Shown: in pieces, positions 36,064 to 59,146 of the stretch
How positions within the stretch are numbered: position 1 is the stretch's first letter
Layout of the letters: each line of letters opens with the position of its first letter
Assembly (NCBI GenBank): GCA_036338695.1
Contig: JAYZBQ010000042.1
Location: forward strand, 1 to 64,000
From: Myxococcota bacterium
GTDB taxonomy: Bacteria > Myxococcota > UBA4151
Reading direction: 5' to 3'
DNA: 64,000 bases
Position numbers and translations under genes: made by a program
Notes under the pieces: model-generated
The model's input: only the letters and a program-made list of their open reading frames with translations
What the model was told of the DNA's origin: nothing
Database searches by the model: none

Positions 36064-39000
36064 TCAGCGGTAACGGAGCAGAGCGTCGAGCTCGGCTTGT
36101 GCGCGCTCGCTGAATTCACCCCGAGGGTCGACCTTCAAGCTCTCGCGCAGCGCCTTCTCGGCTTCGTCGTAGTTCCCTCGCTCTTTCTGAAGCATGCCAA
36201 CGCTCAGGTGCCCGCTGCCCGACTTCGGCTCGTACTGAACGCAGCGAGAGGCTGCACGCATAGCCTGTCGGAAACGCCCCCGATCGATCTGAAGCTCGGC
36301 GATGCGGCAATACGACTTCCCCATGCGCCGGTTGACGCGCACCGCCTGTCGGTAGGAGCGCAGCGCGTTGCGGGTCTGCTCCTTGCCACCCCAGCGACGA
36401 TAGACCTCCGCCTTGTCGTAATAGAGCCCGGCGTTGGCACCCCGGATGCGAAGCGCTTGGTCGAGATCGAGCAGCGCCTCCGGGTACTGACCTTGGTCAC
36501 GGTACGCTCGGGCGCGCCACTCGCGCGCCTCTGCGGAGGCAGAGTCTGCCTGGATGGATTCCGTCAGCGCGTTGATGGCGTCGAGCAACTGGTTTGAGCG
36601 ATAAAATGCCTCGCCCATCGACAGCAGCGTCGGCCCGTGTTTCGGGCGCAGCTGATCGGCCGTTCGCAAGTAACCGAGCGCCTTGTCGGGTTGCTTCTCG
36701 ACGAAGGTGACGCCGAGCAAATACGGGATGTTGCCGTTTTTGCGGTCGATACCCGCCGCCGTTGCGAGATAATTGCGCGCCTCGGCGACGCGCTCACGCT
36801 TGAGCAAGGTCAAGGCGAGCTGGACATAGAATTCGTCCTCCTCCGGCATCAAACGGATCGCGCGTTTCATCAGGTTCGCCGCCTCATCATGTCGCTTCAA
36901 CCGGTCGAGAATGCTCGCCTTTTGCACCATGTACTTGGGGTTTCGCTCCTCGATTGAGAGCGCCGTTGCCGCCTCCTTCAGCGCCTCCTCGACGCGCTTT
37001 TGCTCAAGCAGCGCCTTCGCAAGCAGGTAGTGCGCCCGCGGCTCCTTCTCGGCGCGCCGGATCGCCTCACGGTACTCGCGCTCGGCGAGCTCAAAGTTGT
37101 CTTGCGTTCGGTAAAAGTCACCGAAGCCAATATACACCCACGGGTTCTCCGCATCGATGCTACGCGCCGTCTGAAGGCGGCGCGTCGCGACGTCGAGGTT
37201 GCTGTCTTGGATGTCGATACGCGCCATTGCCACGAGCGCCCGCACGAACTGCGGGTCCGTGCGGAGCACCTTCTCGTACATCTCGCGCGCCTCCTTGCGC
37301 TCGTTCATGAGCCACAAGAGCTCGGCGTGCCAGAACTGCGACGCAGCCGACGGTTTCGCCTGCTTGCTGATCAGCTCACGGATGCGCGCTGCGCCGCGCT
37401 CGTAGGCTGCGGTCTGAATAAAGACATCGGCGAGACCGACGATCCCCGCTTCGCTGTTCGGCGCCATCTTGAGCAAAGCCTCCCAAGTGGCCATCGAGCC
37501 GCTGAAGTCGCCGCCCAAACGGAGCACATGCGCGACGCGCTCCACCAGCACCGTGTCCTTGGGCAAGAAGGTGCGCGCCTTCTCGAGAAACTTCGCCGCA
37601 GCGCCAAAATCGGAGCGGCGAAGCTGGATCTCGCCGAGGATCCGAAAGATCTCTGCCTTCCATTGCTTATGGCGCCCGAGCGAGTCGATCTGACGCCTAG
37701 CCTGATTCAGGGTCGACTCGATGGGCTCGAGCTGCTCCTCGGTCAACTCTCGAGGGTCGATCTCTTCAATCTGCTTCCAGGCGACGCGGCTCTGTCCGAG
37801 CCAGGCGTCGGCGCGCGTCGAGTCTCCATCCGTGACCTTAGCGTAGGCCTGACGCGAGAGCTCATGTTCATTCATCCGCTCATACGCTCGCGCCGCCGTG
37901 AAATGGGTTCGCTCGACGTAACCCGGACCGCCTGCCTCCAGCGCCATCTCCCGGCGTTGCTCGAGGAGGTCTTTATCGCCGGCCGCCGCCGCCACCAAAA
38001 TCGAAAGCTGCAGCGCCTCGACGTCCTTCGCCTTGATGTGCTTGGCGAGGTACATCTCCATCTGCCCCTCGTTACGGTTCGCCAGCGAGGCGCAAGCACG
38101 GGCGATGTCGAAGGCGTTGCCTCGGATCATCTCTTCGGTCATGCCTTTGAGCGCGTTGGTCATCTTCATGCGCTCGAGCGGCAGATCAAATCGCACGAAC
38201 AGATCGCAGGCGATTCGAGCCGAGGCGACCCTCGCCTCGAGGTCCTCATTTGAACTCTTCGTCACGGCGTTGCGCAGGAGCGTGCCTCGCTTCATGATCG
38301 CAGCCAGGCGATCTTCTTTAAGCACATCGTTGATGCGCGCAAAGCGAGACGAGGTCGTCGCCACGCCGGCGCGGCTGCGCGGTGCGCTCGTGCCTGCGGC
38401 GCCTCCACCCGAGCTGTCCAAAACGCCCAGCTGCCATGCTGCCACACCCCCCAGCACCAAGATGCTTGCGGCGCCGATGAGCAGCTTACGACGCCCGCCC
38501 GAAGCCTTAGCTGGCGCCTCTTCATGCATCACCTCGATCTCTGGGCTGTCGTCCATGACGCGCACCTGCACGCCCACGAGCTCCGGCAGGTCTCCCTGAT
38601 CGGTGGCGCCGCTTGCGAACTGCGGCGCGTCATCCACTGCGCTCGAGAAGTTGCCACCATCGACGAAGGCTGAGAACTCAGGGTGGGCGCCCAGAGGCTG
38701 CCAGTCCTGACCGTCTGCGCTGATCTCCTCGTTGCCTAAGAGCATCCCAGTGCGCAGCATGTTCTCGACGCGATCGCCCATGTAGGGGCCTACGACGTCG
38801 CCTGTCGCCATGCGCAGGTGGTACATCATCTGGTCCGGCTCTTCGAGGAACTCTTCGAGCTCGCCGCCGAGTACGTTCAGCAGCGGATCATCGCCCTCGT
38901 CCAACGAGAAGCTGAAGTCATCGGACCCGCCATCAGCGATCTCCGTTTCGACGATATCCGGCGAATCAAAGCCGTCGTCATCGAAGCCCTCGAGTGGGTC

Positions 39001-43998: not shown

Positions 43999-46900
43999 CT
44001 ACTGGCAGTATTCCGCCTCGTCGATCTCCGCCAACAGCGGATCTTCTTCGTCGTACCAGTAGCGGTTGTACAACCGAACGATACGACAGCGGTTCGCCAT
44101 GTAGCGGTTGAGCGCACCATCGACGTCACCGCTCTGCAACTGCTCCATCCCAGCGCGCCACTCGGCGATACCGGTCAGAGCCATCTGATCTTCACGGTAA
44201 TCCAGCTCGTCTTCCTCATCACCGTCGAAGGTGGTGAGGGCGTTGAGGCTGTAGTGCAACGACACATCGAGCATGGCGTACACGGTGTGCGCCAGCGTGG
44301 TGCGCCAGTGCGTCGTATCCACCAACGCGCTCTGGATCTCACGGAAGTAGTCCACGACCTCGACGATGTTCAGGTAACACAAGGTGAACTGGCGATCGTT
44401 GAGGCCCTGAAGGATCAACTGGTCAGTACACCGGGTCACGTTGCCCATCTTCTCGATGGCGCCTTGGAGCTGGGTGTAGCCCACTCGGCTCACGTCTCGA
44501 GCCGTGCGCAGCTGCTCACGGAAGACCCACTGAAGGAATCGCTGGATCGCAACGGTCAGGCCGATGCGAGCCTCGTCGAGTTCTTCGGCATCCGAGTCTT
44601 CGTTCCCAAACACGCTCATCGCCGTCTGGCGAGTCTCTTGAACACGGGAGTACAGATCGTACTCGAGCTCGTAGAGGTGAGCGAGCAGGTTGTAACCGTC
44701 ACGAGCCCGTGCAGCCTGGACCGAGCCGATGTTGCTCTGACGACCGCTCGCCAGCTGAGCGTTCGCACGGCCGATGTAGTTGCTCCACCACTCGAGGGCG
44801 AGATCGCTCTCGGAGCGCAGCTCCTCCATCGTGCTGACATACATCGTCATCTCACCCAACATCGCCGAGCCGATGTCCTTGGAGAACGTCGACAGGACCC
44901 GAGGACCGTCGTTGCGACGGGCAAGCAGCAAGGTGTTCGCTGCGTTGACCGCACGGCTAAAGCTCGGGCTCCAAGCGATCTGACGATCACGGAAACCAGG
45001 CCCAGCGTTTTCACGAGTTCGTGCGTCCCAGTAGCCGAGCGACTCGGTCAAGTGCGTCACCGTGCTGTTGAGGTCATCTTCGTAGTCCTCGCCACCGGCA
45101 CCCTCGAGCATGGTTTCGACCCGTGCTTTCACGTCGACCAGGCTGCTGCGGTAGTCACGCAGCAGGAAGTATCGGTCGGTCGTGTTCACGTTGCCCGCGA
45201 AGTCACGAATCTGCAGCCGCAAGCGGTGCTGGTTCGTGCGGTCGTCGTCGAAGGTCCGCAGTCGAGCCATGTCGAGATACGGACGTTCGTTCGCCGTCAC
45301 GCAGATCTCGGAGCCTGGCACGCAGTCCAGACCCGACACCTCACGCGAGCCAGTGATGAGCACGCCACGACCACGGACCGTGTGCCGAAGCAGGTTCGCC
45401 TCACCGCCCCACGGACGGCCTGGGTCACCCGGGTTCAAGATCATCGTGATCGACTGAATACCCGAACGCTCGTCGTTCATCGTCACGCCGCCCAAGTCGA
45501 GTCGGTTCCCGACGAACTGGCGCAGGAAGGTGTCGACATTGTCCGGATCCACGGCGTTGTTGATGAGCTTCTCGAAGTCATGCGTTGGCGCAATCGTGTC
45601 GATGCCGAAGCTCAAGTCCGGTATGAGCGCAAACTCGTCACAGTGCCAGACCATCACGTAGCCGCCGATGTAGTTCCCGTCCTCGGCGAAGATACCGGTG
45701 AACAGGTTCTGATTCGGCTGTTGGATCACGCGCGTCGGGATCGGGATCCAGTCCCATTGCCCGGTGCGTGGGTCCTCGTTACAGTTCTGGTTACGAGTCA
45801 ACAAGGTGACCTGGACCGAGACGTCGTCACGGACGTAGGTGCCCATCTCAACTTCAGCTCCGCCGCTGGTGACGCGCACTCGAGCGGTGAGCGTCGGGCG
45901 CCGCACCTCAACACGCATGTTGGTGCTGCGGCTGTTGCCCTGCGGATCGGCGATCGTCCAGCGCACGGTGTGCACGCGGATGTCGCCTTCCATGACGCCG
46001 CCTTCGTTCCAACATGTGCCACCCTGATCTTCCGGACCGTCCGGATGCGACTTGGTCAGCGTCAGGCGGTTGTTCGGGTAGCTGTTGTCGAGCACGCTCG
46101 GCCGCGGCAGGTACGCCGTCACGCAACCATCACGCAGACCCACGATCGCACGCGGCACCAAGGTAAAGGTCGGCGCCGTCGTATCGACGATGCGGACCGG
46201 GTAGGTGCCCACGGTCATGTTCCCCGAGTCATCACGCACACGGACACGGACGGTGTGGTCACCCACGCCATCCGGGTTCGTCGAGCGAGCGAAGCGGTGC
46301 GTCGCCGCCGAGACGTAGCGTCCGTTGACCAAGGTCTCCTGCGTCACGTCGAGGCGTGCATCGCAAGCATCGGTCGCTTGGAAGTTGTTGGCATCCGGCG
46401 CGTTGGTCGTCAGGTTCTTGAGCGTGACGATCGTCCCAGCGACGCTCTGTGCTTCGACGATCTTAACCGGTCCGCCGCTGTACGCCGGGCGGGTCGTGTC
46501 ACGCACGTCGAAGCGCTGGAAGGCGCTGAAGCCTTCGTTGCCCGCCGCATCCACGCCGCGCCAGCGGACGTAGTGCGTACCCTTCTGACGGAACGCCGAC
46601 TCGTCCCAAGCCACGCAGCTCTGAGCGACCTGTCGTGGGCAGTAGAACGGCGTCGCCACCAGGCTGATCCCTTCCACAGCGTCGTCGACGCGCGGGGTAC
46701 CCAAACGGGCGATCGCGATCCGGCTACCCGCTTGCACGTCCTGCTCGTACACTCGGTACGAAGGAGGCGTCACGCGCGGCGCCGTGCGGTCGAAGACGAA
46801 GTGGCGAGAGGGACCTTGGATCACGGTACGCCACGGCTGCCCACGGCTGTGCTCCGCGACCACGCGCCAGCAGTAGTAGGTGTTGTCGTTGAGGTTTGCG

Positions 46901-49900
46901 ATCCTCGCCGTGTGCGAGCCACGCGAGTCGCCCGTTGCGAGCGTCTGCCAGTTACCCCCAGCGCATCCGGTGAACCGGTTGGTCCCAGCTGCTCGATACT
47001 GAACCGAAGCGTGAGCGTCCGGCGCCACCGAGAAAGCCAGGCTGGCGGTACGGTTCGCTTTGTCGATCGAGACGACGCGCTCGCCGCTGATCGCCGGGAA
47101 CCGGCGTTCGATCCAAGGCGTGCTCGCCTGCCCCGCAAGGTTCGTCGCCGTCATCCGGGTGAAGTACGGCCGCCCCGCCGTGATGGCGTTGCTTCGGATC
47201 ACACGGTTCCCCGTGCCGGTGTTGCGAACCTGACCGGCGTTGTCGGTCGCGATCACGTTGTTCGTGGTCGGCGCAGCGACCTGCGTGACCACGCCCACCG
47301 TGGTGTTCGGCTGCATCGACCAGGTGACCGTACCGGTGCTCCCGGCTTTGACGTACGGACCGTCGACTTCGTACCAGTCGACGACCGTGTTTCGGTCACC
47401 GCGTCCGAGGCCGTCCGGATTCCCGCCACAGCCACCGCACCAGTCGTTGTCAAAGCGAGCGCGGAAGGTGTGACGACCCGCCGTGACGTTCGCCACCACC
47501 TGAAGCTCGTTGAAGTCAGACTGGCTCGTCGAGAAGAGCTCTCGCCGACCGATGCTCTGCCCATCGAGCTCGAAGGTGAAGTGTGCGTTCTCGGGGCCTG
47601 CCTGCGTCGCGGAGGCGCGCAGCTTGAAGACGTACTGTCCCTCTTCAGGCGCCGTGAAGGTGTAGACACGACCGCCCGCGCCGCACTGGTGAATGTTGCC
47701 GTTGACCGGAGTACATTCGCCATCACCTGCCGGGAGCGTCTCAATCTGGACACGGCGTTGTGTTGCGTTCGCCGTGGCAGCGAGGCGCACGTCGTTGCGC
47801 AGGATCCTCGGGATCAGCTGCAGCTCCGGCGTCACCACTGCGCCAACACCGGTTCCGGCCGTGTTCTCGGACTGGACACGGACGCAGTAGGTCGTGCCTC
47901 GAGTCAAGCGGGTGAAGTTGTGGGAGATCGACGTCGCCCGACCATTGGTCCGGTACGCCGCATGGAACGCCCCACCAGCGCAGGCGTTGCCGCCACCGCC
48001 ACGGTAGATACGAATCTCCATGTCACCCGGTACGTGCGAGCGACCTGAGACCTGCATCGACGCTTGCGGGTGGTTCAGCACCGCAGTGACCCCGCTGACG
48101 CGCGGTAGTTCTTCTTCGTACCGCGGGTTGCGCATCGAGACGACGGCACCCGACGAGACCGCTGCCGGCAACAACCGACCGTTGAGGTTCACGCTGTTGT
48201 TGCCCGAGCTCATCCCCTGCTTGACCCATCCGCCGCCACGGAAGCGGGCGAAGTGGACATCACGATAGCGGTAGATGATGTGGTTGCGACCGCGAACGAA
48301 GACCGTCTGGAACTCGACGCGCGAGCCATTCGCACGCTCACGGCAGTCCCAGCTGATGATGAAGCGTTCCGGCGCGCCGCGCAGGTGCTTCCACATCAAC
48401 CGGTTGCAGTAGAGGTTCGCAAACATCGGCGCGATCAGGTTGTTGGGATCACCCGGGCTGCCGAAGTTGGCTGGTGCGGTGTCGACGCCAATGTTGGCGC
48501 CGCCCATCGACATCCAGCCGTCGGTCGAGGCGACCAAGCGGTTGTAGATGGTGCCGAAGTAGATGAACTTGAACGGTAAGCCGATGTTCACCGTGCGGTC
48601 GTCTTGATTCACGATCTGGCTCGGGCGCAGGTCAGCGATGTTGTCCCAGCCGCGCGAGTTGTTGATCGTGGCGGTGTAACCCGCCGACGAGACCGTCGCC
48701 GCGAAGGCGTCGACGTTCGCAGCCTGGGACACCGAGAGCGGTCCGTTGATCGCACGCACCTTCACGCAATGCGTCGTGCCCTGGCTGACCGGCGCCGTGC
48801 GCCAGTCTAGGAAGCCTGCGTTGCCGGTGCGGTTCGCGATACGCGATCCTGAGCAGTTACCGCCCGATGCGCTGCCGCGGTAGACCTCAGCCTCCCAGCT
48901 AGCAGCATGACGGAACTGCGAGGCAAGGTGGATGCCCATACCCGCTTGGTTACCCGTTCCTTGGAAGAAGGTGATCTGCGGGTAGTGCAACACGAACTCG
49001 GTGCGCAGCGAGCGCCGATCACCGCCCGTATTGAGCCGCAGGATGATGCAGTAGTGGTAGCCGCGCGCGACCGACCACGTGCGGTTCATGCTGCCTTCGC
49101 TCGGGAAGGAGCTGCTCGCCTGCAAGCCCTGCGTGTTGTTGCAGCCACCGTTTGCCGGCGAACCACCGCGGTACAAGTGCACCGTGTACGCCGAGCTGTA
49201 GGTCCAGTCAGCCGTGACATTAATACGGCCGCTGTACTGGTTCACGCTCGCACGCATCCACTGAATCTCGGGATTAAACAGGGTCCCCAAGTTGGTCGTG
49301 CGTACATCTTGCCCCAGCGCCAAGCGGGCGCAATACTGATAGCCACGCCGAATACCGGGTGTGTTCCCTGGCGTGAAGGTGTAGTCCAAGCTGCTCTGAC
49401 GGTTCCAGGCGATCGGCACGACCTTGATCGGCCCGCCCGTGCAGTTGCCGTTACGATACAGCGACAGGTTGGCGTCGGCTGCGGCGTATCGGCGCCAGCG
49501 GGCGCGGACCGTAAAGCTCGCCGCTTCCTGGTTGATGCTGCCCGTCAGGCTGTGCGGTGTACCGCGACTGCTACGTACCATATGTCCTGCGACTCGGTTT
49601 CCGCCGTCGCGCGTCACCGCCTGCAAGCAGTAGTTCGTGTGCCGCGCGATGCGTGGCCACGCGTTCGTGTTCGTAAACGTGCGGGTGAACGAGCTGCTCG
49701 CCCCATAGCGCTGCCGGAACACCTCCTGGCCGTTGACACAGCGACCGTTCGAGAGCGCGCCGCCTTTGTACAAATACATATCGATCGGCGCCGCAAAGCT
49801 CGTGTTCACCTGAGCGCGAAGCTGTGGATAGTCCGGGTTGATGGCGTCAAGCCGCACATTCGTGAGGCGAGCGTAATCCACGACAGGCGTCATCCAGGCG

Positions 49901-51054
49901 TGCTGATACTCACGCCCTGGCCCACGATAGTTGACCAAATGAACGCAGTAACGATGCCCGCGGTACAAGCCGCTAAAGTCGTAACTAAACGACGATCCCG
50001 AGAAGTTAACCTGCCAGTAGCTACCATAGCCAGACCGGACGGGGTGTGAGTAGTCACGGCACGCGTTGCCGCTCCCGTGCGAGTAGGTCCGCCCGCCTCG
50101 ATACAGCCGAACGTAGCCGGACGACGGCCTGTCGAGGTTGATACGCACCCTGACGGTCGCTCGCGGTCCATCCACGGATATGTTCCTGCTCGTCACCCTG
50201 TTTCCAAGGATCGGCGAGGTCATGCCCGACCAAACCGTTCTATGACCGCCATCGAAGTTGCGTATGTGTACGCAATATCTTTGCCCCGAGTAGCGACCAT
50301 CTGACGACCACCCTAGACCGCCAAAGGTCTGGTTGATGCTCGAACTTGTGGTCGTCCAAGTCTGCCTGTGCGAGCCACGGTGACAGTAACCGCCCGAGGC
50401 TGACCCGCCACGGTATATGTAGACCCTTGAGGTGGGATCTCCATAACCCGCAGTATAGTAGTGTCTGTACGCCTGCTGATATCTCTGTTGGTACGCCTCA
50501 AGGTAGCGCTCGCGGTAAGCCACCCTAACACGCACCTGGCGCCTCCTAAGCACCGCCACGTAGACACGCCGGAGCTCGCGCCGGTAGCCCCAGCTCCAGT
50601 AGTAGTACCAGTAGCAACGCGTGTAGCAGTAGGTTCGCCAACCGCAGCGACGCCACCACCAGCCACCCCAGCAAGAGTAGCGGCGGTAGCAGTAACGGTA
50701 GCAGCGGTAGCCACGTCTCAGCACCCGGTAGCGAACGTACACCCAGCGATACTGCCACTCATAGGACCAGTAGTACTGCCAGCGGTATTCCCAGCGGTAA
50801 GACCAGCGATACGCCCAGCGGTATGCGGTGCGATACGCCCAGCGATAACGGATCTCGTAGTTCCGCTTGGTACCCCGGTTGAAGTTGTACCGGACATTAA
50901 GCCGCATGTTGTGTTGATCATGACTAACCCGGACGCTGCTAATATTCGGCGCAGGCTCCCACCACCACGCGTCCGCATCACCCGCCCAAAGACAGATCAC
51001 AAACGCCGCCGCTATGGGTGCGCTACGAACTATCGATCGTGCCAAGTTAACCAT
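43999..51054 (-). CDS. Giant (~2350 aa) secreted multidomain protein: R/Y/W-rich Cys-ladder insert, 8 FN3/Ig-like repeats, NIDO-like, CBM-like, HYR-like and helical C-terminal domains
   Basis: Uninterrupted ORF; GAGGAGG lies 9 nt before ATG 51054; signal peptide ending ADA; repeated YRGG..C / YC motifs; downstream terminator. Confidence 0.85.
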   Translation of the reverse strand: MVNLARSIVRSAPIAAAFVICLWAGDADAWWWEPAPNISSVRVSHDQHNMRLNVRYNFNRGTKRNYEIRYRWAYRTAYRWAYRWSYRWEYRWQYYWSYEWQYRWVYVRYRVLRRGYRCYRYCYRRYSCWGGWWWRRCGWRTYCYTRCYWYYYWSWGYRRELRRVYVAVLRRRQVRVRVAYRERYLEAYQQRYQQAYRHYYTAGYGDPTSRVYIYRGGSASGGYCHRGSHRQTWTTTSSSINQTFGGLGWSSDGRYSGQRYCVHIRNFDGGHRTVWSGMTSPILGNRVTSRNISVDGPRATVRVRINLDRPSSGYVRLYRGGRTYSHGSGNACRDYSHPVRSGYGSYWQVNFSGSSFSYDFSGLYRGHRYCVHLVNYRGPGREYQHAWMTPVVDYARLTNVRLDAINPDYPQLRAQVNTSFAAPIDMYLYKGGALSNGRCVNGQEVFRQRYGASSSFTRTFTNTNAWPRIARHTNYCLQAVTRDGGNRVAGHMVRSSRGTPHSLTGSINQEAASFTVRARWRRYAAADANLSLYRNGNCTGGPIKVVPIAWNRQSSLDYTFTPGNTPGIRRGYQYCARLALGQDVRTTNLGTLFNPEIQWMRASVNQYSGRINVTADWTYSSAYTVHLYRGGSPANGGCNNTQGLQASSSFPSEGSMNRTWSVARGYHYCIILRLNTGGDRRSLRTEFVLHYPQITFFQGTGNQAGMGIHLASQFRHAASWEAEVYRGSASGGNCSGSRIANRTGNAGFLDWRTAPVSQGTTHCVKVRAINGPLSVSQAANVDAFAATVSSAGYTATINNSRGWDNIADLRPSQIVNQDDRTVNIGLPFKFIYFGTIYNRLVASTDGWMSMGGANIGVDTAPANFGSPGDPNNLIAPMFANLYCNRLMWKHLRGAPERFIISWDCRERANGSRVEFQTVFVRGRNHIIYRYRDVHFARFRGGGWVKQGMSSGNNSVNLNGRLLPAAVSSGAVVSMRNPRYEEELPRVSGVTAVLNHPQASMQVSGRSHVPGDMEIRIYRGGGGNACAGGAFHAAYRTNGRATSISHNFTRLTRGTTYCVRVQSENTAGTGVGAVVTPELQLIPRILRNDVRLAATANATQRRVQIETLPAGDGECTPVNGNIHQCGAGGRVYTFTAPEEGQYVFKLRASATQAGPENAHFTFELDGQSIGRRELFSTSQSDFNELQVVANVTAGRHTFRARFDNDWCGGCGGNPDGLGRGDRNTVVDWYEVDGPYVKAGSTGTVTWSMQPNTTVGVVTQVAAPTTNNVIATDNAGQVRNTGTGNRVIRSNAITAGRPYFTRMTATNLAGQASTPWIERRFPAISGERVVSIDKANRTASLAFSVAPDAHASVQYRAAGTNRFTGCAGGNWQTLATGDSRGSHTARIANLNDNTYYCWRVVAEHSRGQPWRTVIQGPSRHFVFDRTAPRVTPPSYRVYEQDVQAGSRIAIARLGTPRVDDAVEGISLVATPFYCPRQVAQSCVAWDESAFRQKGTHYVRWRGVDAAGNEGFSAFQRFDVRDTTRPAYSGGPVKIVEAQSVAGTIVTLKNLTTNAPDANNFQATDACDARLDVTQETLVNGRYVSAATHRFARSTNPDGVGDHTVRVRVRDDSGNMTVGTYPVRIVDTTAPTFTLVPRAIVGLRDGCVTAYLPRPSVLDNSYPNNRLTLTKSHPDGPEDQGGTCWNEGGVMEGDIRVHTVRWTIADPQGNSRSTNMRVEVRRPTLTARVRVTSGGAEVEMGTYVRDDVSVQVTLLTRNQNCNEDPRTGQWDWIPIPTRVIQQPNQNLFTGIFAEDGNYIGGYVMVWHCDEFALIPDLSFGIDTIAPTHDFEKLINNAVDPDNVDTFLRQFVGNRLDLGGVTMNDERSGIQSITMILNPGDPGRPWGGEANLLRHTVRGRGVLITGSREVSGLDCVPGSEICVTANERPYLDMARLRTFDDDRTNQHRLRLQIRDFAGNVNTTDRYFLLRDYRSSLVDVKARVETMLEGAGGEDYEDDLNSTVTHLTESLGYWDARTRENAGPGFRDRQIAWSPSFSRAVNAANTLLLARRNDGPRVLSTFSKDIGSAMLGEMTMYVSTMEELRSESDLALEWWSNYIGRANAQLASGRQSNIGSVQAARARDGYNLLAHLYELEYDLYSRVQETRQTAMSVFGNEDSDAEELDEARIGLTVAIQRFLQWVFREQLRTARDVSRVGYTQLQGAIEKMGNVTRCTDQLILQGLNDRQFTLCYLNIVEVVDYFREIQSALVDTTHWRTTLAHTVYAMLDVSLHYSLNALTTFDGDEEDELDYREDQMALTGIAEWRAGMEQLQSGDVDGALNRYMANRCRIVRLYNRYWYDEEDPLLAEIDEAEYCQ
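50741..50850 (-). repeat. 12-bp tandem coding repeat (YRWx tetrapeptides)
   Basis: Recurrent CCAGCGRTA units on the + strand encoding YRWA-YRTA-YRWA-YRWS-YRWE-YRWQ-YYWS-YEWQ-YRWV. Confidence 0.85.
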
Positions 51055-51091
51055 GTCTCTCATCCTCCTCTTTGCGCCTACCGCTAAGCGC

Positions 51092-52468
51092 CTAAGGGCA
51101 ATCTGCCGGGATGCGGCAATGCCCTTGAATACCTTGTCCGTTCGCCACACAGCATGAGCCTGCGAGCTCATTGGTGCAGGTGGCTTGATTCTGCGTCACG
51201 CAAGCGAGCGTGCAGTACCATCTCGTGGGGTCATCAACACCCTGCAAGCACACCCCGCCACGCTGCTGACACGCCATGGGGTTGTTGCGAAACTCTGTGC
51301 AATCCGTGCCGATGAAGACACGCGGCCCAGCATCGTCGGGAGGCGGCGTTGCGTCAAAGGCGCCAAGATCCGGAATAGGACCGTAATCGAAGTTTGACGC
51401 GTCCGGCCTTGGGCCCTGACCAAAATCTGGAATCGGTCCGTCAAAGCCTGGAGGCAGAGTGTCGCCGATGATCTGAGCATCTGGCAGCGGCGGGGGCGGC
51501 GCGCCGTCTGGACATTCCCGAGCGTCTGCACACCCAGTACCCCACCAACCCATGTCTGGCTGAGGACCTGCGTCCTCGTTAAACCAACCGTAATCCGGGC
51601 GCGGCCCAATGTCCGCAGGCGGTTCGGCGTCTGGGAAGCCCAGATCCGGCAAGCCACCCTCGGGCGGGCCTTGATTGCCAATGTCTGGAAAGGGACCCAG
51701 GTCCATCATGCCAGCATCCGGAGCCCAGAGGTCATCCACCGGAACGTCTGGCAACCCACCGTCAGCGTTGCCGATGTCGAGCCGCGCACCGTAGTCGGGG
51801 ATACCGCCGTCGGCGAAGCCGTAGTCAGGAAGACCGGGACCATCAAAAACGCCCACATCGTTGTAGCCGCCAAGGTCCATACGTCCCGTATCGATCATCG
51901 CAACATCGCCCGTGTCCCAGACCAACACATCCGGTAGCGCATCCACGTCGCGCCCGAGCATGAACTCCCCCGTGGTGTTGATGGCGGCCACGAACTCGCC
52001 GTCAACGTAGGTCGACTCCACGGACTCCCACAGCTCACCGGCTTGGCTTCGATGCCACACCTTATAGCGCGCCAGCTCACCGACATCGAAGTTGTCCGGA
52101 ACAACGATCGTGACCGTCGCCTCAACCGTGAGGCTCATGAAGGGGCGGACTCGCCACCCGTTGCCCTGGTGCACCACACCGACGGTTGGCGGGTTGTCCC
52201 AAACGGGGAAGGTATCGATAAGGCAATCGATCTCGTCGATACTGTGATACTGGATCCGAAACACGCCGCCCGCCGCAGCGCAGGCCTTGAAACCTGCGTC
52301 GTTCGCTCGGTTCCGCGGATCCGGCTCACCAGCAGCGACACAGCTACCGTCTCGGCAAATATACCCCGGACGGCAGTCTCCAGCGCCGACACACGTCCCT
52401 GAGCTGCCTACTGTGCAGCCTGCTCCAGCACCTAACATTGCGCTCAACACCACCAGATTGCGCAGCAC
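51092..52468 (-). CDS. Cys-rich lipoprotein with acidic PDxG/DxG repeat linker
   Basis: GAGC lipobox, C....DC..GY.C..G.C motif, many (P)D[YLIAMF]G units and a C-terminal Cys-rich domain. Confidence 0.8.
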   Translation of the reverse strand: MLRNLVVLSAMLGAGAGCTVGSSGTCVGAGDCRPGYICRDGSCVAAGEPDPRNRANDAGFKACAAAGGVFRIQYHSIDEIDCLIDTFPVWDNPPTVGVVHQGNGWRVRPFMSLTVEATVTIVVPDNFDVGELARYKVWHRSQAGELWESVESTYVDGEFVAAINTTGEFMLGRDVDALPDVLVWDTGDVAMIDTGRMDLGGYNDVGVFDGPGLPDYGFADGGIPDYGARLDIGNADGGLPDVPVDDLWAPDAGMMDLGPFPDIGNQGPPEGGLPDLGFPDAEPPADIGPRPDYGWFNEDAGPQPDMGWWGTGCADARECPDGAPPPPLPDAQIIGDTLPPGFDGPIPDFGQGPRPDASNFDYGPIPDLGAFDATPPPDDAGPRVFIGTDCTEFRNNPMACQQRGGVCLQGVDDPTRWYCTLACVTQNQATCTNELAGSCCVANGQGIQGHCRIPADCP

Positions 52469-55972: not shown

Positions 55973-57874
55973 ATGAGCGACCACGTCTTTCTCATCATCG
56001 ACGGCCAAACCAAAGGCCCCTTCTCGCAGCAGCAGATCCGCGACGGCCTGAGCTCAGGCACGATCAACCCCCAGACGCTCGGAGCACTCAGAGGCGGGGC
56101 GGAGTGGAAACCGGTCGCCGAAGTGCTCGACGACCTCGCTCAAGGTGCCGGTGCGCCCAGCGCGACGGAGAACCTGCTCGCTGCGCTGCGCGACCGGCTC
56201 CGTCAGCAAGGCCCGCTCGAGCGGCTCGGCTTATCAGGCGATCCTTCGCCGATGGTTGTCGACAAGACCTACCAACGCCTCAAGGCTCAACTCAAAGAGC
56301 GCTTAGCGAGCTCGCCCACGCCGCGCGGTAAAGCGCTGGCGAAGGAAGCGCTCACGTACCTGAAAGCGGCGGTCGAGCAACTGCGCGACCCGAAAGAGCG
56401 CTTCATCCTCAAGCGCGCTGCCGATCTGGGAGTGGATCCGGCGAAGGATGAGAACCGCAGCTACCTCTCCACGCTCTACTACCGCGACGAGGCTCAGGCG
56501 GCGTTTGATGCAGGGCGTATGAGTGAGGCGCTCGGCTTGTTCGACCAGCTGCTTGAACTCCAACCCGACAACGCTGACGCCGTCTGGCAGCGCGCCCTCG
56601 CCCTGTACCGCAGCGACCCACTGCGCACGCAGGAAGCGCTCAGCGAGCTCAAGCGCTGCTCCAGCACCTGGCCCGACAAAGTGGAGCCGGTCCGTAGCCT
56701 CGCCACCTTACACCTCGAGCTCGGACGGCGCGACGAGGCGAAATCGCTGGCGCGCTCGGCGCTCGAGATCGCCCCGAACGACGCAGAGTCCAAGCGACTC
56801 CTCGATATCCTCTCGGGTAAAATGTCCGCCAGCGCGGCGTCGTCCAGCGGACAACCCGACGTGTCGGGCGAGTTCGCAAACATCAAAGGTGAGGCCGCGA
56901 CCAAGTCGAAAAAGCAACGTAAAAAGGGCTCAAAAAAGGCACCAAAAACGAAGGGCTCAGGGGGCGAATCATCGACAGACTCTCTTGGCTTTGCAAAAGT
57001 CGCGGTCGTCTGTGCGCTCGTGTTCGGCGGGCTCTTCCAGATGGCGCACCAGACCCCGGACTCATGCTTTCCACAGGGCGACCAAGAGTACTTCTTTCAG
57101 CCGGACACCTATTACGATTTTCGAGACCTGCAAGCCGAACAGCTCCCCGGCCAGGCCTGCGCGCCGAGCCTTCACCCCCCTGAAGGCAGCGGTTACTTTA
57201 TCCAGTTCGAAGCGCAGCTCGCGTGTGAGGAGAATCTGGAGGCGGACAACCCGTCCGTGTCTGCGGAGGCGGTGGCAGCCGAGTGCACCTCCATCCCCGT
57301 CGCATCGCCTGGCCACCCGCGGTCATCGGAGACCTCGTTCTTTTACGTTCGCCGCGGCATCTTACTCGGCGCCGGCATCTTATGCATTGCGCTCCTCGGA
57401 TCCGGACGAAGCATCGGCGAGCGCTTTAAAAATCTAGGTTTTGAGCTCGACGGAACGGTGGGTGTTGCGCTTGGGTTCGGCCTGCTTGTCGGCTTTTTCT
57501 CCCCGCTCCAGTTTACCCTTGCGCCCCTTGGCACCTTGCTGGCGCTGACCGCGTTTCATGTGCTGTGCGAGGAGATATTTTTTCGAGGGTTTGTGACCCG
57601 CAAGCTGCTCGACAGCTTTGCAACGCCGCTTGCGCCGGTGGTCCTATCGGGGCTGCTCTTCGGTGTGTACCATATCACCTTCACCAGCTTTTGGTGGATC
57701 ACCCCGATGGCGATCCCAGCTTGGGTCGGGATGGTCACAATCGGCGCCGGTATACCGTACGCAGCCTTGTATGCGCGAAGTAACTCGATCCTGGTACCGC
57801 TGGCAGCTCACCTCTGCGTCAACCTCTTGATGATGTTCCGATCACACGGCGCCGTGAGCGGCCTGTTGGCATAA
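55973..57874 (+). CDS. GYF_2 - J-like - TPR - CPBP (CAAX/Abi) intramembrane protease fusion
   Basis: DGQTKGPFS..W GYF motif, TPRs, a Cys-containing periplasmic loop, and CPBP motifs EEIFFRG, FGVYH and AHLCVN. Confidence 0.85.
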   Translation: MSDHVFLIIDGQTKGPFSQQQIRDGLSSGTINPQTLGALRGGAEWKPVAEVLDDLAQGAGAPSATENLLAALRDRLRQQGPLERLGLSGDPSPMVVDKTYQRLKAQLKERLASSPTPRGKALAKEALTYLKAAVEQLRDPKERFILKRAADLGVDPAKDENRSYLSTLYYRDEAQAAFDAGRMSEALGLFDQLLELQPDNADAVWQRALALYRSDPLRTQEALSELKRCSSTWPDKVEPVRSLATLHLELGRRDEAKSLARSALEIAPNDAESKRLLDILSGKMSASAASSSGQPDVSGEFANIKGEAATKSKKQRKKGSKKAPKTKGSGGESSTDSLGFAKVAVVCALVFGGLFQMAHQTPDSCFPQGDQEYFFQPDTYYDFRDLQAEQLPGQACAPSLHPPEGSGYFIQFEAQLACEENLEADNPSVSAEAVAAECTSIPVASPGHPRSSETSFFYVRRGILLGAGILCIALLGSGRSIGERFKNLGFELDGTVGVALGFGLLVGFFSPLQFTLAPLGTLLALTAFHVLCEEIFFRGFVTRKLLDSFATPLAPVVLSGLLFGVYHITFTSFWWITPMAIPAWVGMVTIGAGIPYAALYARSNSILVPLAAHLCVNLLMMFRSHGAVSGLLA

Positions 57875-57918: not shown

Positions 57919-57993
57919 GGGCCGGTAACTCAGTGGTAGAGTGTCGCCTTTACACGGCGGGTGTCGCTGGTTCGAACCCTGCCCGGCCCACCA
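57919..57993 (+). tRNA. tRNA-Val(TAC)
   Basis: Acceptor GGGCCGG/CCGGCCC, anticodon loop TTTACAC, GGTTCGAACC, encoded CCA; one T:T mismatch in the T stem. Confidence 0.95.
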
Positions 57994-57999
57994 GGCTGG

Positions 58000-58812
58000 T
58001 CACGCTCGGCGCTCAGCGAGGCGTCGAGCGATGACCGCCATCCCAAAGACAGCGATCGCAAAGACGACGTAACCGGGTAGGTCGTGGACCCATCCGTCCC
58101 ACGGGCCGCGCGCCACCCACCGACCGATCCAAACCGACAACGCAACGCGCACGCCGTTGACGACGACAGCTAGGACCGGCGCAGCCGCCAAAAAGATCAG
58201 GTCATGACGCCAACTCAAGCCCGTGCCCAACAACAACAAGACCGCGCCCGTCAAAGCGAAGAGGCCTTCGACCTGATTGAGGCCAGCGCACTGCTCGTTG
58301 ATACGAAGTGGTTCGTACCCCACCTGTCCGGCCGCCACGTTGTGGTGCGCAATGTCGCAAAAGCTCGCACAAGGGATCTTTAGATAGACGGTATCGCCGT
58401 GGAGCGCGTGGTTCAGCTCGTAACTCGGGTCAATCCCAGCCAGCGCACCACCGAGCTCGGCTGTAACCACCTGCAGCGGCCACTGAACAGACGCCGCGAT
58501 CCACGGGTCCCAAGGCAGCGCAAGCAGCGCCATGACCACGGCAGGCCAGCGCTCGATGCGTCGCCATGCGATCCAAGCGACCGAAAAAACAGCGGCGGGC
58601 ATCCAGAAGATGCCCGCAACAGTCACCAAACTGACCACCCCTCCCGGGATGGCGCTGGAGCGGTCCGAACCAGGCGCCCTGACCACGATCACGAGCAGTG
58701 CAAGCACCACCGCGATGCGAAAGGTCAGCAGCGGGTCGGCCGGCTCGAGCCAAATATGCCAGATCGTCGCCCCGCAGGCGACCATCCACTCAGCGAGCTG
58801 GCGGAGGCTCAG
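58000..58812 (-). CDS. Exosortase/archaeosortase-family protein
   Basis: Multi-TM with the Cys-Arg-His triad in family context: INEQCAG, VVNGVR, WVHDLPG. Start ambiguous (CTG 58812 overlapping the upstream stop, ATG 58785, or GTG 58857). Confidence 0.88.
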   Translation of the reverse strand: MSLRQLAEWMVACGATIWHIWLEPADPLLTFRIAVVLALLVIVVRAPGSDRSSAIPGGVVSLVTVAGIFWMPAAVFSVAWIAWRRIERWPAVVMALLALPWDPWIAASVQWPLQVVTAELGGALAGIDPSYELNHALHGDTVYLKIPCASFCDIAHHNVAAGQVGYEPLRINEQCAGLNQVEGLFALTGAVLLLLGTGLSWRHDLIFLAAAPVLAVVVNGVRVALSVWIGRWVARGPWDGWVHDLPGYVVFAIAVFGMAVIARRLAERRA

Positions 58813-58976
58813 CGGCGAGCAGCCCAGAGGCTCGCTGCGCCAACGCCAAGCAGCCACAATGCGGCCGGCTCAGCGCCACCACCGCCGCCACCGCCGCCGC
58901 CGCCGCCGCCTGCAAACGCAGCAGCCGAGACAAGGACCAGCGCAAAGCCGAACACGGGTGCAAAGGTGCGAATCAT
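58809..58976 (-). CDS. 55-aa poly-glycine mini-protein with PEP-CTERM-like sorting signal
   Basis: Hand translation: MIRTFAPVFGFALVLVSAAAFA-GGGGGGGGGGGG-AEPAALWLLGVGAASLWAARR*. RBS GAGGAG; below the ORF-track cutoff. Confidence 0.85.
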   Translation of the reverse strand: MIRTFAPVFGFALVLVSAAAFAGGGGGGGGGGGGAEPAALWLLGVGAASLWAARR

Positions 58977-59045
58977 GAGAACTCCTCTTCCGGCTTGTCT
59001 TGAGAGACATGCCCGTCATGTTTGGTCAACTGTTTCCTCTACGCC

Positions 59046-59061
59046 GCAAGACTTGTGCCAG
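59046..59061 (-). promoter_or_regulatory. Sigma-54 (-24/-12) promoter for the mini-protein/exosortase pair
   Basis: Minus strand CTGGCACAAGTCTTGC = TGGCAC-N5-TTGC, 70 nt upstream of the ATG. Confidence 0.8.
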
Positions 59062-59117
59062 TGACGCAATTATGACGAAACCCCCCTACAAATGGGGTTC
59101 GAGTCCGACCCTCGACA

Positions 59118-59146
59118 CTCAAGTTGACAGAATTCGTCAACTTGAG
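59118..59146. promoter_or_regulatory. Perfect 11-bp inverted repeat: candidate enhancer-binding site (or lon terminator)
   Basis: CTCAAGTTGAC-AGAATTC-GTCAACTTGAG with no U-tract; 57-85 bp upstream of the -24 box. Confidence 0.55.

Follow-up and report, generated by a model that had tools for sequence, protein, structure and literature searches.

The micro-precursor gene and its exosortase

The stretch analysed here, referred to as the window, comprises 64,000 nucleotides (nt) of a Myxococcota bacterium (GenBank assembly GCA_036338695.1, contig JAYZBQ010000042.1, positions 1 to 64,000), and its subject is a 55-amino-acid (aa) open reading frame (ORF), the micro-precursor gene (58809..58976), that lies directly upstream of an exosortase gene. 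Both genes, and all features of them given below, are on the minus strand unless stated otherwise. The gene call is supported by translation, by recurrence in relatives, and by synonymous differences far in excess of non-synonymous ones. The translation, MIRTFAPVFGFALVLVSAAAFAGGGGGGGGGGGGAEPAALWLLGVGAASLWAARR, consists of 22 residues ending in AFA, exactly 12 glycines, the motif AEP, 16 uncharged residues, and RR, and it is preceded by the ribosome-binding site GAGGAG (58982..58987); relatives have GGAG-type sites. A first-pass annotation, made from the letters alone, had described this layout, and translation confirmed it. The same annotation had called the ORF unannotated, which did not hold: the ESM Atlas contains a letter-for-letter identical entry, and relatives are deposited as hypothetical proteins. 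The nearest Atlas clusters are PEP-CTERM, XrtJ-target, VPEID, and VPDSG proteins of 52-72 aa at 0.88-0.91, matches with fewer than 170 shared features that serve as leads only.

The first 22 residues (58911..58976) form a predicted signal peptidase I signal with an A-x-A end and no lipobox, whose cleavage site was placed from the A-x-A pattern and hydrophobicity. Alanines at -3 and -1 are invariant in all nine aligned signals, and the best 11 residues have a mean hydropathy of 2.4-2.9. The 12-glycine passenger (Gly12; 58875..58910), with Gly1 (position +1) as the proposed acylation site, is encoded by a mixture of GGC and GGT codons, and no other Gly12 run occurs when the 3.36-Mb assembly is translated in six frames (62,789 frames). 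Enrichment of GGT (38/78 tract codons versus 22% genome-wide) was considered as a sign of high expression and dropped, because other long glycine runs are likewise mainly GGC and GGT. The AEP motif, hydrophobic helix, and RR (58812..58874) were assigned as a PEP-CTERM-like sorting tail by conservation and profile. The tail falls under the family cut-offs, scoring 19.1 bits on Pfam PEP-CTERM model PF07589 (cut-off 20.7) and 12.9 on TIGR02595 (cut-off 16); relatives' tails score 13.0-15.5 bits on PEP-CTERM models, and 21 bits were reached in one genome scan only with neighbouring residues counted. A tail profile found no second copy in the source genome (56.2 bits versus 11.4 or less).

The exosortase (58000..58812, about 270 aa) belongs to no named subfamily. 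It exceeds the cut-offs of TIGR04178 (50.9 bits, cut-off 23) and PF09721 (57.8 bits, cut-off 25.7), so that the model check proposed in the first-pass annotation succeeded for the enzyme and fell short for the tail. The catalytic-type triad reported there as intact (codons for Cys at 58290-58288, Arg at 58149-58147, and His at 58086-58084) is indeed invariant in 12 of 12 aligned relatives, and the structure model is of the helical membrane type (mean pLDDT 83.9). Scores on two XrtA/EpsH models were both below cut-off (37.1 bits against 208; 41.2 against 105.55), the XrtJ pair TIGR04199/TIGR04200 matched neither enzyme nor target at E<=10, and the XrtE model TIGR04162 did not match the enzyme. 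Sortase models matched none of the locus proteins, and a PDB fold search gave no match at E<=0.001. A predicted complex of the exosortase with precursor residues 23-55 scored 0.27 (mark 0.32), a value to be read without folded controls.

The source genome (G000, 93.6% complete) holds one exosortase and one AEP-helix tail; relatives G002, G004, and G005 have one exosortase apiece. Exosortases of the Gly12-AEP type from seven lineages form one tree branch (support 100/98). The exosortase and micro-precursor are therefore a conserved one-to-one pair, as the first-pass annotation had proposed, with a predicted mature product of about a dozen glycines, and the exosortase is likely the enzyme that cleaves the tail of its neighbour.

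Genomic context was surveyed in 401 Myxococcota genomes, some searches using a subset of 151. A micro-ORF with the signal, glycine, and tail layout lies directly upstream of the exosortase in 13 of the 15 loci examined, a recurrence that the first-pass annotation had suggested looking for; two are duplicates, leaving 11 distinct loci from about seven lineages in two genera. The other two are L020, whose contig begins inside the exosortase, and L023, an E=4e-5 match with no exosortase frame. An apparent loss of the cassette in G001 was set aside, as the contig ends inside the signal. Across loci, identity is 38-100% in the enzyme, 29-100% in the signal, and 67-100% in the tail, while all 11 loci keep a passenger of 11-12 residues over the whole range of enzyme identity. 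It is all glycine except in one lineage, which has three polar residues after Gly1. Over 21 pairs from seven lineages, which are not independent, synonymous and non-synonymous differences (pS and pN) are 0.56 versus 0.064 in the glycine tract and 0.77 versus 0.20 in the tail. A Gly6-AEP DNA pattern matched 52 of the 401 genomes, and of the matching loci outside the source family, none of the 30 that were read encoded a signal-Gly-tail precursor.

An assembly artefact, either a slippage repeat or a collapsed longer gene, was also considered. The stretch occurs in 24 sequencing runs, marine or estuarine and with no RNA run among them, and the Logan contigs of four runs end at the glycine repeat and leave its length unconfirmed. 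On the other side, the same length recurs in separately assembled loci and in seven lineages, with third codon positions scrambled among them, which bears out the earlier observation that the mixed codons do not represent pure slippage. L015, a separately assembled metagenome contig, repeats the 12 glycines with one synonymous difference. Because the same ORF occurs in 13 of 15 loci, it is neither a chance frame nor the remnant of a longer PEP-CTERM gene, and we consider an artefact scarcely credible. The micro-precursor gene is real and conserved, and the length of its passenger is constrained.

Upstream of the gene is a sigma-54-type (-24/-12) motif, TGGCAY-N5-TTGC (59046..59060, minus strand), and beyond it a palindrome, TGAC-N7-GTCA (59125..59139, no strand assigned), a putative and likely binding site for an enhancer-binding activator. 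Each is present in 10 of the 11 loci, the palindrome in both genera; the 11th offers only 94 nt of upstream sequence, too short to include them. The two elements are 62-64 nt apart in the source genus and 114 nt apart in the other. Exact TGGCAY-N5-TTGC sites number eight genome-wide, two of which precede genes that, reading their identity from motifs, are pilin-like and flagellar-rod-like; of 29 loose sigma-54-type sites, only that of the micro-precursor has the full palindrome within 220 nt. The source genome has rpoN above cut-off, PrsR and PrsK were below model cut-offs there, and a sigma-70 promoter scan of the locus found none. From these elements we infer that the micro-precursor is under sigma-54 control. 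Elsewhere in the assembly (contig C4, approximately 36635-36672), two tandem TGAC-N7-GTCA palindromes occupy an intergenic region with no sigma-54-type site found nearby.

The first-pass annotation placed the precursor stop over the start region of the exosortase. This does not apply to the first ATG (58785), which is 24 nt past the stop and not conserved. It does apply to a CTG in the exosortase frame that overlaps the precursor TGA in 11 of 11 loci, all precursors ending in CGC-TGA. In 4 of the 11, the first ATG, GTG, or TTG is 33 codons past the CTG, behind conserved sequence. The enzyme thus likely starts at a CTG coupled to the precursor stop, and would therefore likely be made in much smaller amounts than the precursor. 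We would like to note that this start is no more than likely because Arg is most often encoded by CGC, and of 203 frames that terminate with Arg, 39 have CGC-TGA as their end. A -1 frameshift fusion of precursor and enzyme was rejected: that frame has a stop two codons upstream (G004/G005), and no slippery run is visible.

Gly-first precursors and a divergent Lnt paralogue in other families

Tracing a conserved neighbour of the locus, a GYF-TPR-CPBP protease gene described below, led to exosortase loci in other families. Precursors of 55-65 aa lie directly upstream of the exosortase in G006, G060, G075, G095, G100, and G121, with Gly8 or a Gly-rich 8-12-mer after A-x-A, then a different tail, a helix, and basic residues. 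The distance from signal site to helix is approximately 14-19 residues across this sister set. All 13 aligned precursors have Ala at -1 and Gly at +1. For comparison, a rough prediction of signals in G000 gave Gly+1 for 15 of 112, and 5 of 20 other small targets, judged by eye, have it. A protein search with the precursor alignment returned 24 proteins, 23 of which are such precursors.

Several sister exosortases stand beside a 460-aa carbon-nitrogen hydrolase of the Lnt type. The source genome has this paralogue on another contig (C48, 116609-118027), unlinked to the exosortase locus, and separately encodes a canonical Lnt (245.5 bits, cut-off 132.9). One query, chosen regardless of peptides, found the paralogue in 14 of 151 genomes, and a profile run on the 401 genomes, which included 12 of the 14 and scored four candidates per genome, again singled out these 14, which scored 200-643 bits, with everything else at 159 or less. 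The 14 proteins fall on one side of a branch (SH-aLRT 94), their Glu/Lys/Cys triad is invariant in 12 of 12, and the closest solved structures are Lnt. Outside the source family, the paralogue abuts the exosortase in six of eight genomes from four families (G006, G057, G060, G073, G075, and G121); in G060 and G121, precursor, exosortase, and paralogue are contiguous. Gly-first precursors were found in 11 of the 14 paralogue genomes; in the other three, the contig ends inside the signal (G001) or inside the enzyme (G002), or the genome is 59% complete (G003). A plasmid search with the paralogue gave weak matches to ordinary Lnt only. A possible link between an Lnt paralogue and MYXO-CTERM proteins was dropped, since a search of PMC11980579 gave no occurrence of it. 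Directly upstream of the paralogue in the source family is an ORF of 150-180 aa with no Pfam family (L207:4377-4829 and L206:4793-5341, both plus strand), and a short ORF is likewise upstream of it in G057.

Two genomes from outside the original sample differ in the paralogue. G057 has a 70-aa Gly-first, Gly-rich precursor with an APEP-helix tail approximately 7 kb upstream of its adjacent Lnt-exosortase pair, on the same strand. In G045, where the paralogue was not found, the exosortase is a related one, scoring 82.7 bits with the profile of sister enzymes, and the precursor, of 83 aa, begins with Leu-Leu. The G045 precursor (L240:1474-1725, plus strand) has a signal, a Gly-rich segment, and a helix, and is beside a flagellin-like gene, unlinked to the exosortase.

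In G073 (L202:3970-4872, plus strand), a precursor-like segment is in frame with the exosortase (300 aa in all) and is followed by the Lnt paralogue; this frame could be a true fusion or reflect a stop lost in the metagenome-assembled genome. It is one reason to consider that the precursor belongs to the enzyme itself, as a pro-segment or subunit in the form of a hairpin of two helices joined by a glycine loop, and serves to regulate or complete it; the peptide would then not be the functional product. Precursor and enzyme also share a frame with one stop between them in G075, G095, and G121, and the exosortase frames of G060, G121, and G006 are short (216-248 aa). Nevertheless, the source exosortase, at about 270 aa, already has a full helical set in its model, the strong ribosome-binding site and the promoter are on the precursor while the enzyme lacks a conserved standard start, and the G057 peptide gene is some 7 kb away. 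We regard such a role as distinctly unlikely.

Catalogued relatives and neighbouring genes

Exosortases occur in 98 of the 401 Myxococcota genomes. Scanning 72 exosortase loci gave 65 enzyme frames, 20 of them with an adjacent small signal-spacer-tail ORF whose passenger ranges from about 2 to 50 residues. Three Myxococcota enzymes tested on the exosortase E model scored 137.6-154.3 bits (cut-off 150), and one small target scored 23.5 bits on the 57-position XrtJ target model. In G006, an enzyme resembling exosortase E (148.1 bits, cut-off 150) is preceded by a target of 60 aa in which only about two residues separate the signal from the tail (L108:1147-1329, plus strand).

Because tiny targets are both present among catalogued models and common in Myxococcota, the private exosortase with a micro-target was already known, and the system is not new in this respect. 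The comparison with XrtJ and XrtE was made through model names and lengths only. XrtJ (TIGR04199/TIGR04200; PF27850, "XrtJ-associated TM-motif-TM protein") likewise pairs a private exosortase with a signal-spacer-tail target of about 55-60 residues (TIGR04200 models a whole protein of length 57; the Atlas cluster is 56 aa), but its enzyme model has 522 positions against about 270 aa here, where the passenger is pure glycine, the tail is AEP, and an Lnt paralogue co-occurs. XrtE (TIGR04162, PF27847) stands one-to-one with small low-complexity targets of the VPEID type, common in Myxococcota, and a CPBP protease is part of the XrtE enzyme as a CPBP gene is a neighbour here. In contrast, our enzyme has no fused protease and is on a separate tree branch, the tail is not of the VPE[IL]D type, and XrtE-type passengers vary freely and are mostly not Gly-first.

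The source system may thus be an ordinary private exosortase, in which the N-terminus stays free, the peptide is cut C-terminally and then lipid-anchored or released, and the Lnt paralogue serves other substrates. The abundance of tiny low-complexity targets in the phylum, with passengers down to about two residues, and the unlinked position of the paralogue in the source family are consistent with this. Adjacency of paralogue and exosortase in four families, the invariant Gly+1, and the contrast between G057 and G045 argue against it, and we hold it to be unlikely. What is new here is the divergent second Lnt linked to exosortases and Gly-first precursors. The private pairing proposed in the first-pass annotation has precedents in TIGR04200 and TIGR04162. 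That annotation had overlooked both upstream elements (the palindrome and the sigma-54-type promoter) as well as the Lnt paralogue and the systems of the sister families.

With the PEP-CTERM/XrtA (EpsH) and PrsK-PrsR system the locus shares a motif-helix-basic tail and a Cys/Arg/His enzyme. The proteobacterial PEP-CTERM promoter is described as combining a sigma-54 site with an enhancer motif that lies about 63 nt upstream of it (PMC1569441), an arrangement of the same kind as in 10 of our 11 loci, but the enhancer-type motif here is TGAC-N7-GTCA and not one ending in TTTACA (PMC1569441). Further differences are the single target instead of many, the lack of Ser/Thr cargo, and the surroundings: no polysaccharide or cell-wall genes were seen beside the locus.

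For the Lnt paralogue the closest parallel, drawn by analogy, is AatD/CexE. AatD is reported to be an Lnt homologue, with an intact triad and additional to the canonical Lnt, that N-palmitoylates the glycine of CexE exposed by signal peptidase I (PMC7943197). Its substrate, like the precursors here, has a signal peptidase I signal (predicted in our case), no lipobox, an invariant Gly+1, and a Gly-rich start, one glycine being enough for acylation and three better (PMC7943197). CexE, however, is folded, secreted, and served by its own transporter (PMC7943197), whereas the substrate here would be about 12 residues long and carries a second, C-terminal processing signal. ArtA of the PGF-CTERM system is from a homologous enzyme family, and its cleavage is coupled to lipid attachment; it differs in its large S-layer cargo, archaeal lipid, and several targets (PMC7157517). 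A literature search, covering mostly the beginnings of abstracts and journals outside subscription, found no paper that pairs an exosortase with either a glycine micro-substrate or an Lnt paralogue.

Next to the exosortase in the window is a tRNA-Val(TAC) gene (57919..57993, plus strand), at the same position in G004 and G005. An island integrated at the tRNA was rejected: there is no clear GC step, and the locus retains its synteny with lon and the CPBP gene from one genus to the other. The conserved GYF-TPR-CPBP (Rce1-like) intramembrane protease gene (55973..57874, plus strand; Pfam PF02517, PF14237, and TPR) has homologues in 12 of 151 genomes, 2-6 kb from the exosortase in G057, G060, G075, and G095, and is a possible further component of the system. 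As a candidate myxosortase, it scored 18.6 bits on the core model (cut-off 100); on TIGR03008 it scored 17.4, versus 67-114 for XrtE-like proteins. It is the only Rce1-like gene in the assembly, and yet MYXO-CTERM proteins are present (five over cut-off); five relatives have a second, short CPBP gene that the source assembly lacks. The protease may be either an unnamed type of myxosortase or a further part of the exosortase system. In families f23 and f24, the CPBP gene is separated from the exosortase by a conserved gene of 234 aa that weakly matches peptidase M48 (L167:1235-1942 and L172:8539-9243, both plus strand).

Farther away in the window, a 2390-aa protein (43999-51171, minus strand) begins with 250 residues of a quasi-repeat that is rich in Tyr, Arg, and Trp and contains Cys pairs; beyond it are matches of fibronectin-like, CBM60-like, and HYR-like type, all near or under the cut-off. 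A 458-aa lipoprotein-like ORF (51092-52468, minus strand) has Asp-Gly/Pro-Asp-rich repeats, a Cys-rich end, and no family match.

Proposed processing of the peptide

We tentatively favour a reading, by analogy with the systems above, in which the precursor is exported, its signal removed, Gly1 N-acylated by the Lnt paralogue, and the tail cleaved by the exosortase, probably with lipid transfer, to give a short lipopeptide. Signal peptidase I would expose Gly1, and the co-occurring divergent Lnt would N-acylate it with a fatty acid, as AatD does. The adjacent exosortase would then cut at the boundary of AEP and helix, and acyl-Gly12 may be passed to a membrane amine, probably phosphatidylethanolamine by analogy with archaeosortase and rhombosortase, yielding a lipopeptide of the envelope. 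All four processing steps, like expression itself, are ones that we infer. ArtA cleavage is reported to require PssA and PssD, with an ethanolamine lipid proposed as the acceptor that resolves the thioester (PMC7157517), and rhombosortase possibly attaches phosphatidylethanolamine (PMC11980579); phosphatidylserine decarboxylase is present in G000. By standard peptide geometry, a Gly12 lipopeptide would be approximately 40-50 angstrom long when extended, and its most likely role would be that of an inducible lipid that coats the surface or forms a short bridge between membranes, and not that of a folded cargo. The lipid-anchored polyglycine named among the first-pass suggestions coincides with this reading.

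A more specific form is doubtful: signal peptidase I, a glycine-specific Lnt, and the private exosortase could together turn the precursor into a ribosomally encoded lipid. One end of the Gly12 chain would bear a fatty acid and the other, joined by exosortase transpeptidation, a phospholipid or an amine of the cell wall; the gene would thus encode a two-tailed lipopeptide, or a miniature tether of the envelope, with a length set by the glycine count. Alternatively, N-acyl-Gly12 could be transferred to the amine of a macromolecule (peptidoglycan, polysaccharide, or protein) as a tether or tag, so that the macromolecule gains a lipid anchor, like a miniature Braun's lipoprotein. The tight spacer, 11-12 residues in the source set with the roughly constant signal-to-helix span of the sisters, would suit this, exosortases are suspected to be transpeptidases (10.1101/2023.06.07.544157), and PEP-CTERM proteins have been proposed to link surface and polysaccharide (PMC12188702). 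The surroundings of the locus, free of visible polysaccharide or cell-wall genes, speak against it, as does the indication of a lipid acceptor in the best-studied relatives (PMC7157517), and we judge it improbable.

The first-pass annotation had also suggested that the glycines act as a sortase-like acceptor or are cyclised or polymerised. On this view, Gly1 would stay free and itself resolve the thioester of the exosortase, the products being glycine peptides in cyclic or oligomeric form, or it would accept other sorted proteins. An invariant Gly+1 fits a nucleophile as well as it fits an acyl acceptor, and sortase A makes cyclic oligomers from peptides of fewer than 15 aa in vitro (PMC5614665). 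Exosortase and sortase folds, however, are unrelated (10.1101/2023.06.07.544157), the source genome has no other protein with an AEP-helix tail, and the literature search found no link between exosortases and cyclic peptides. Cyclisation or ligation is also less likely because the Lnt paralogue would probably cap the Gly1 amine; we consider it very improbable.

Several observations weigh against the acylated lipopeptide that we favour, beginning with the overlap between the Lnt profile and the genomes it scored. Support for the Lnt branch is under the starred level, and its branches are long. The paralogue is apart from the exosortase in all six source-family genomes, G095, and G100; in G000 it lies behind a small ORF of unrelated kind, and its substrates could be other Gly-first proteins, of which there are 15 rough candidates. 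The 14 genomes represent five families of related marine lineages, so their co-occurrence may in part be shared ancestry. Among 16 other Lnts, no profile match and one motif-only match lay within 1.5 kb, a weak control because the same profile missed three of six known adjacent cases. At E<=0.001, the peptide profile, built from 10 of the 11 positive genomes, matched 6 of 137 paralogue-negative genomes (G045 and five that on reading were not such precursors); as it missed G057 at this threshold, it could also have overlooked Gly-first precursors in the genomes without the paralogue. The tree leaves the exosortase branch of the source family unjoined to the sister-system enzymes, a profile of 10 sister enzymes gives G073 21.5 and G057 40.2 bits, below some unrelated enzymes, and a common clade for the exosortases of these systems is not supported. 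A sigma-54 site was not found in the five sister loci checked, and the G073 fusion is as compatible with one peptide per enzyme as with a product made in bulk. Finally, cut site and acceptor are described as undefined even for the model enzymes (PMC11980579).

The site at which exosortases and archaeosortases cut, and the moiety they attach, are treated as an open question (PMC11980579, 10.1101/2023.06.07.544157). Because this is a pair of one enzyme and one target with a 12-residue product free of glycosylation sites, the attached moiety should be readable from a single mass measurement. If the link to Lnt fails, the locus would be one more unnamed exosortase with a tiny target. If it is true, N-acylation of glycine would extend beyond the enterobacterial Aat system, two unrelated routes of protein lipidation would meet on one peptide, and marine Myxococcota would have a new class of small envelope lipopeptide.

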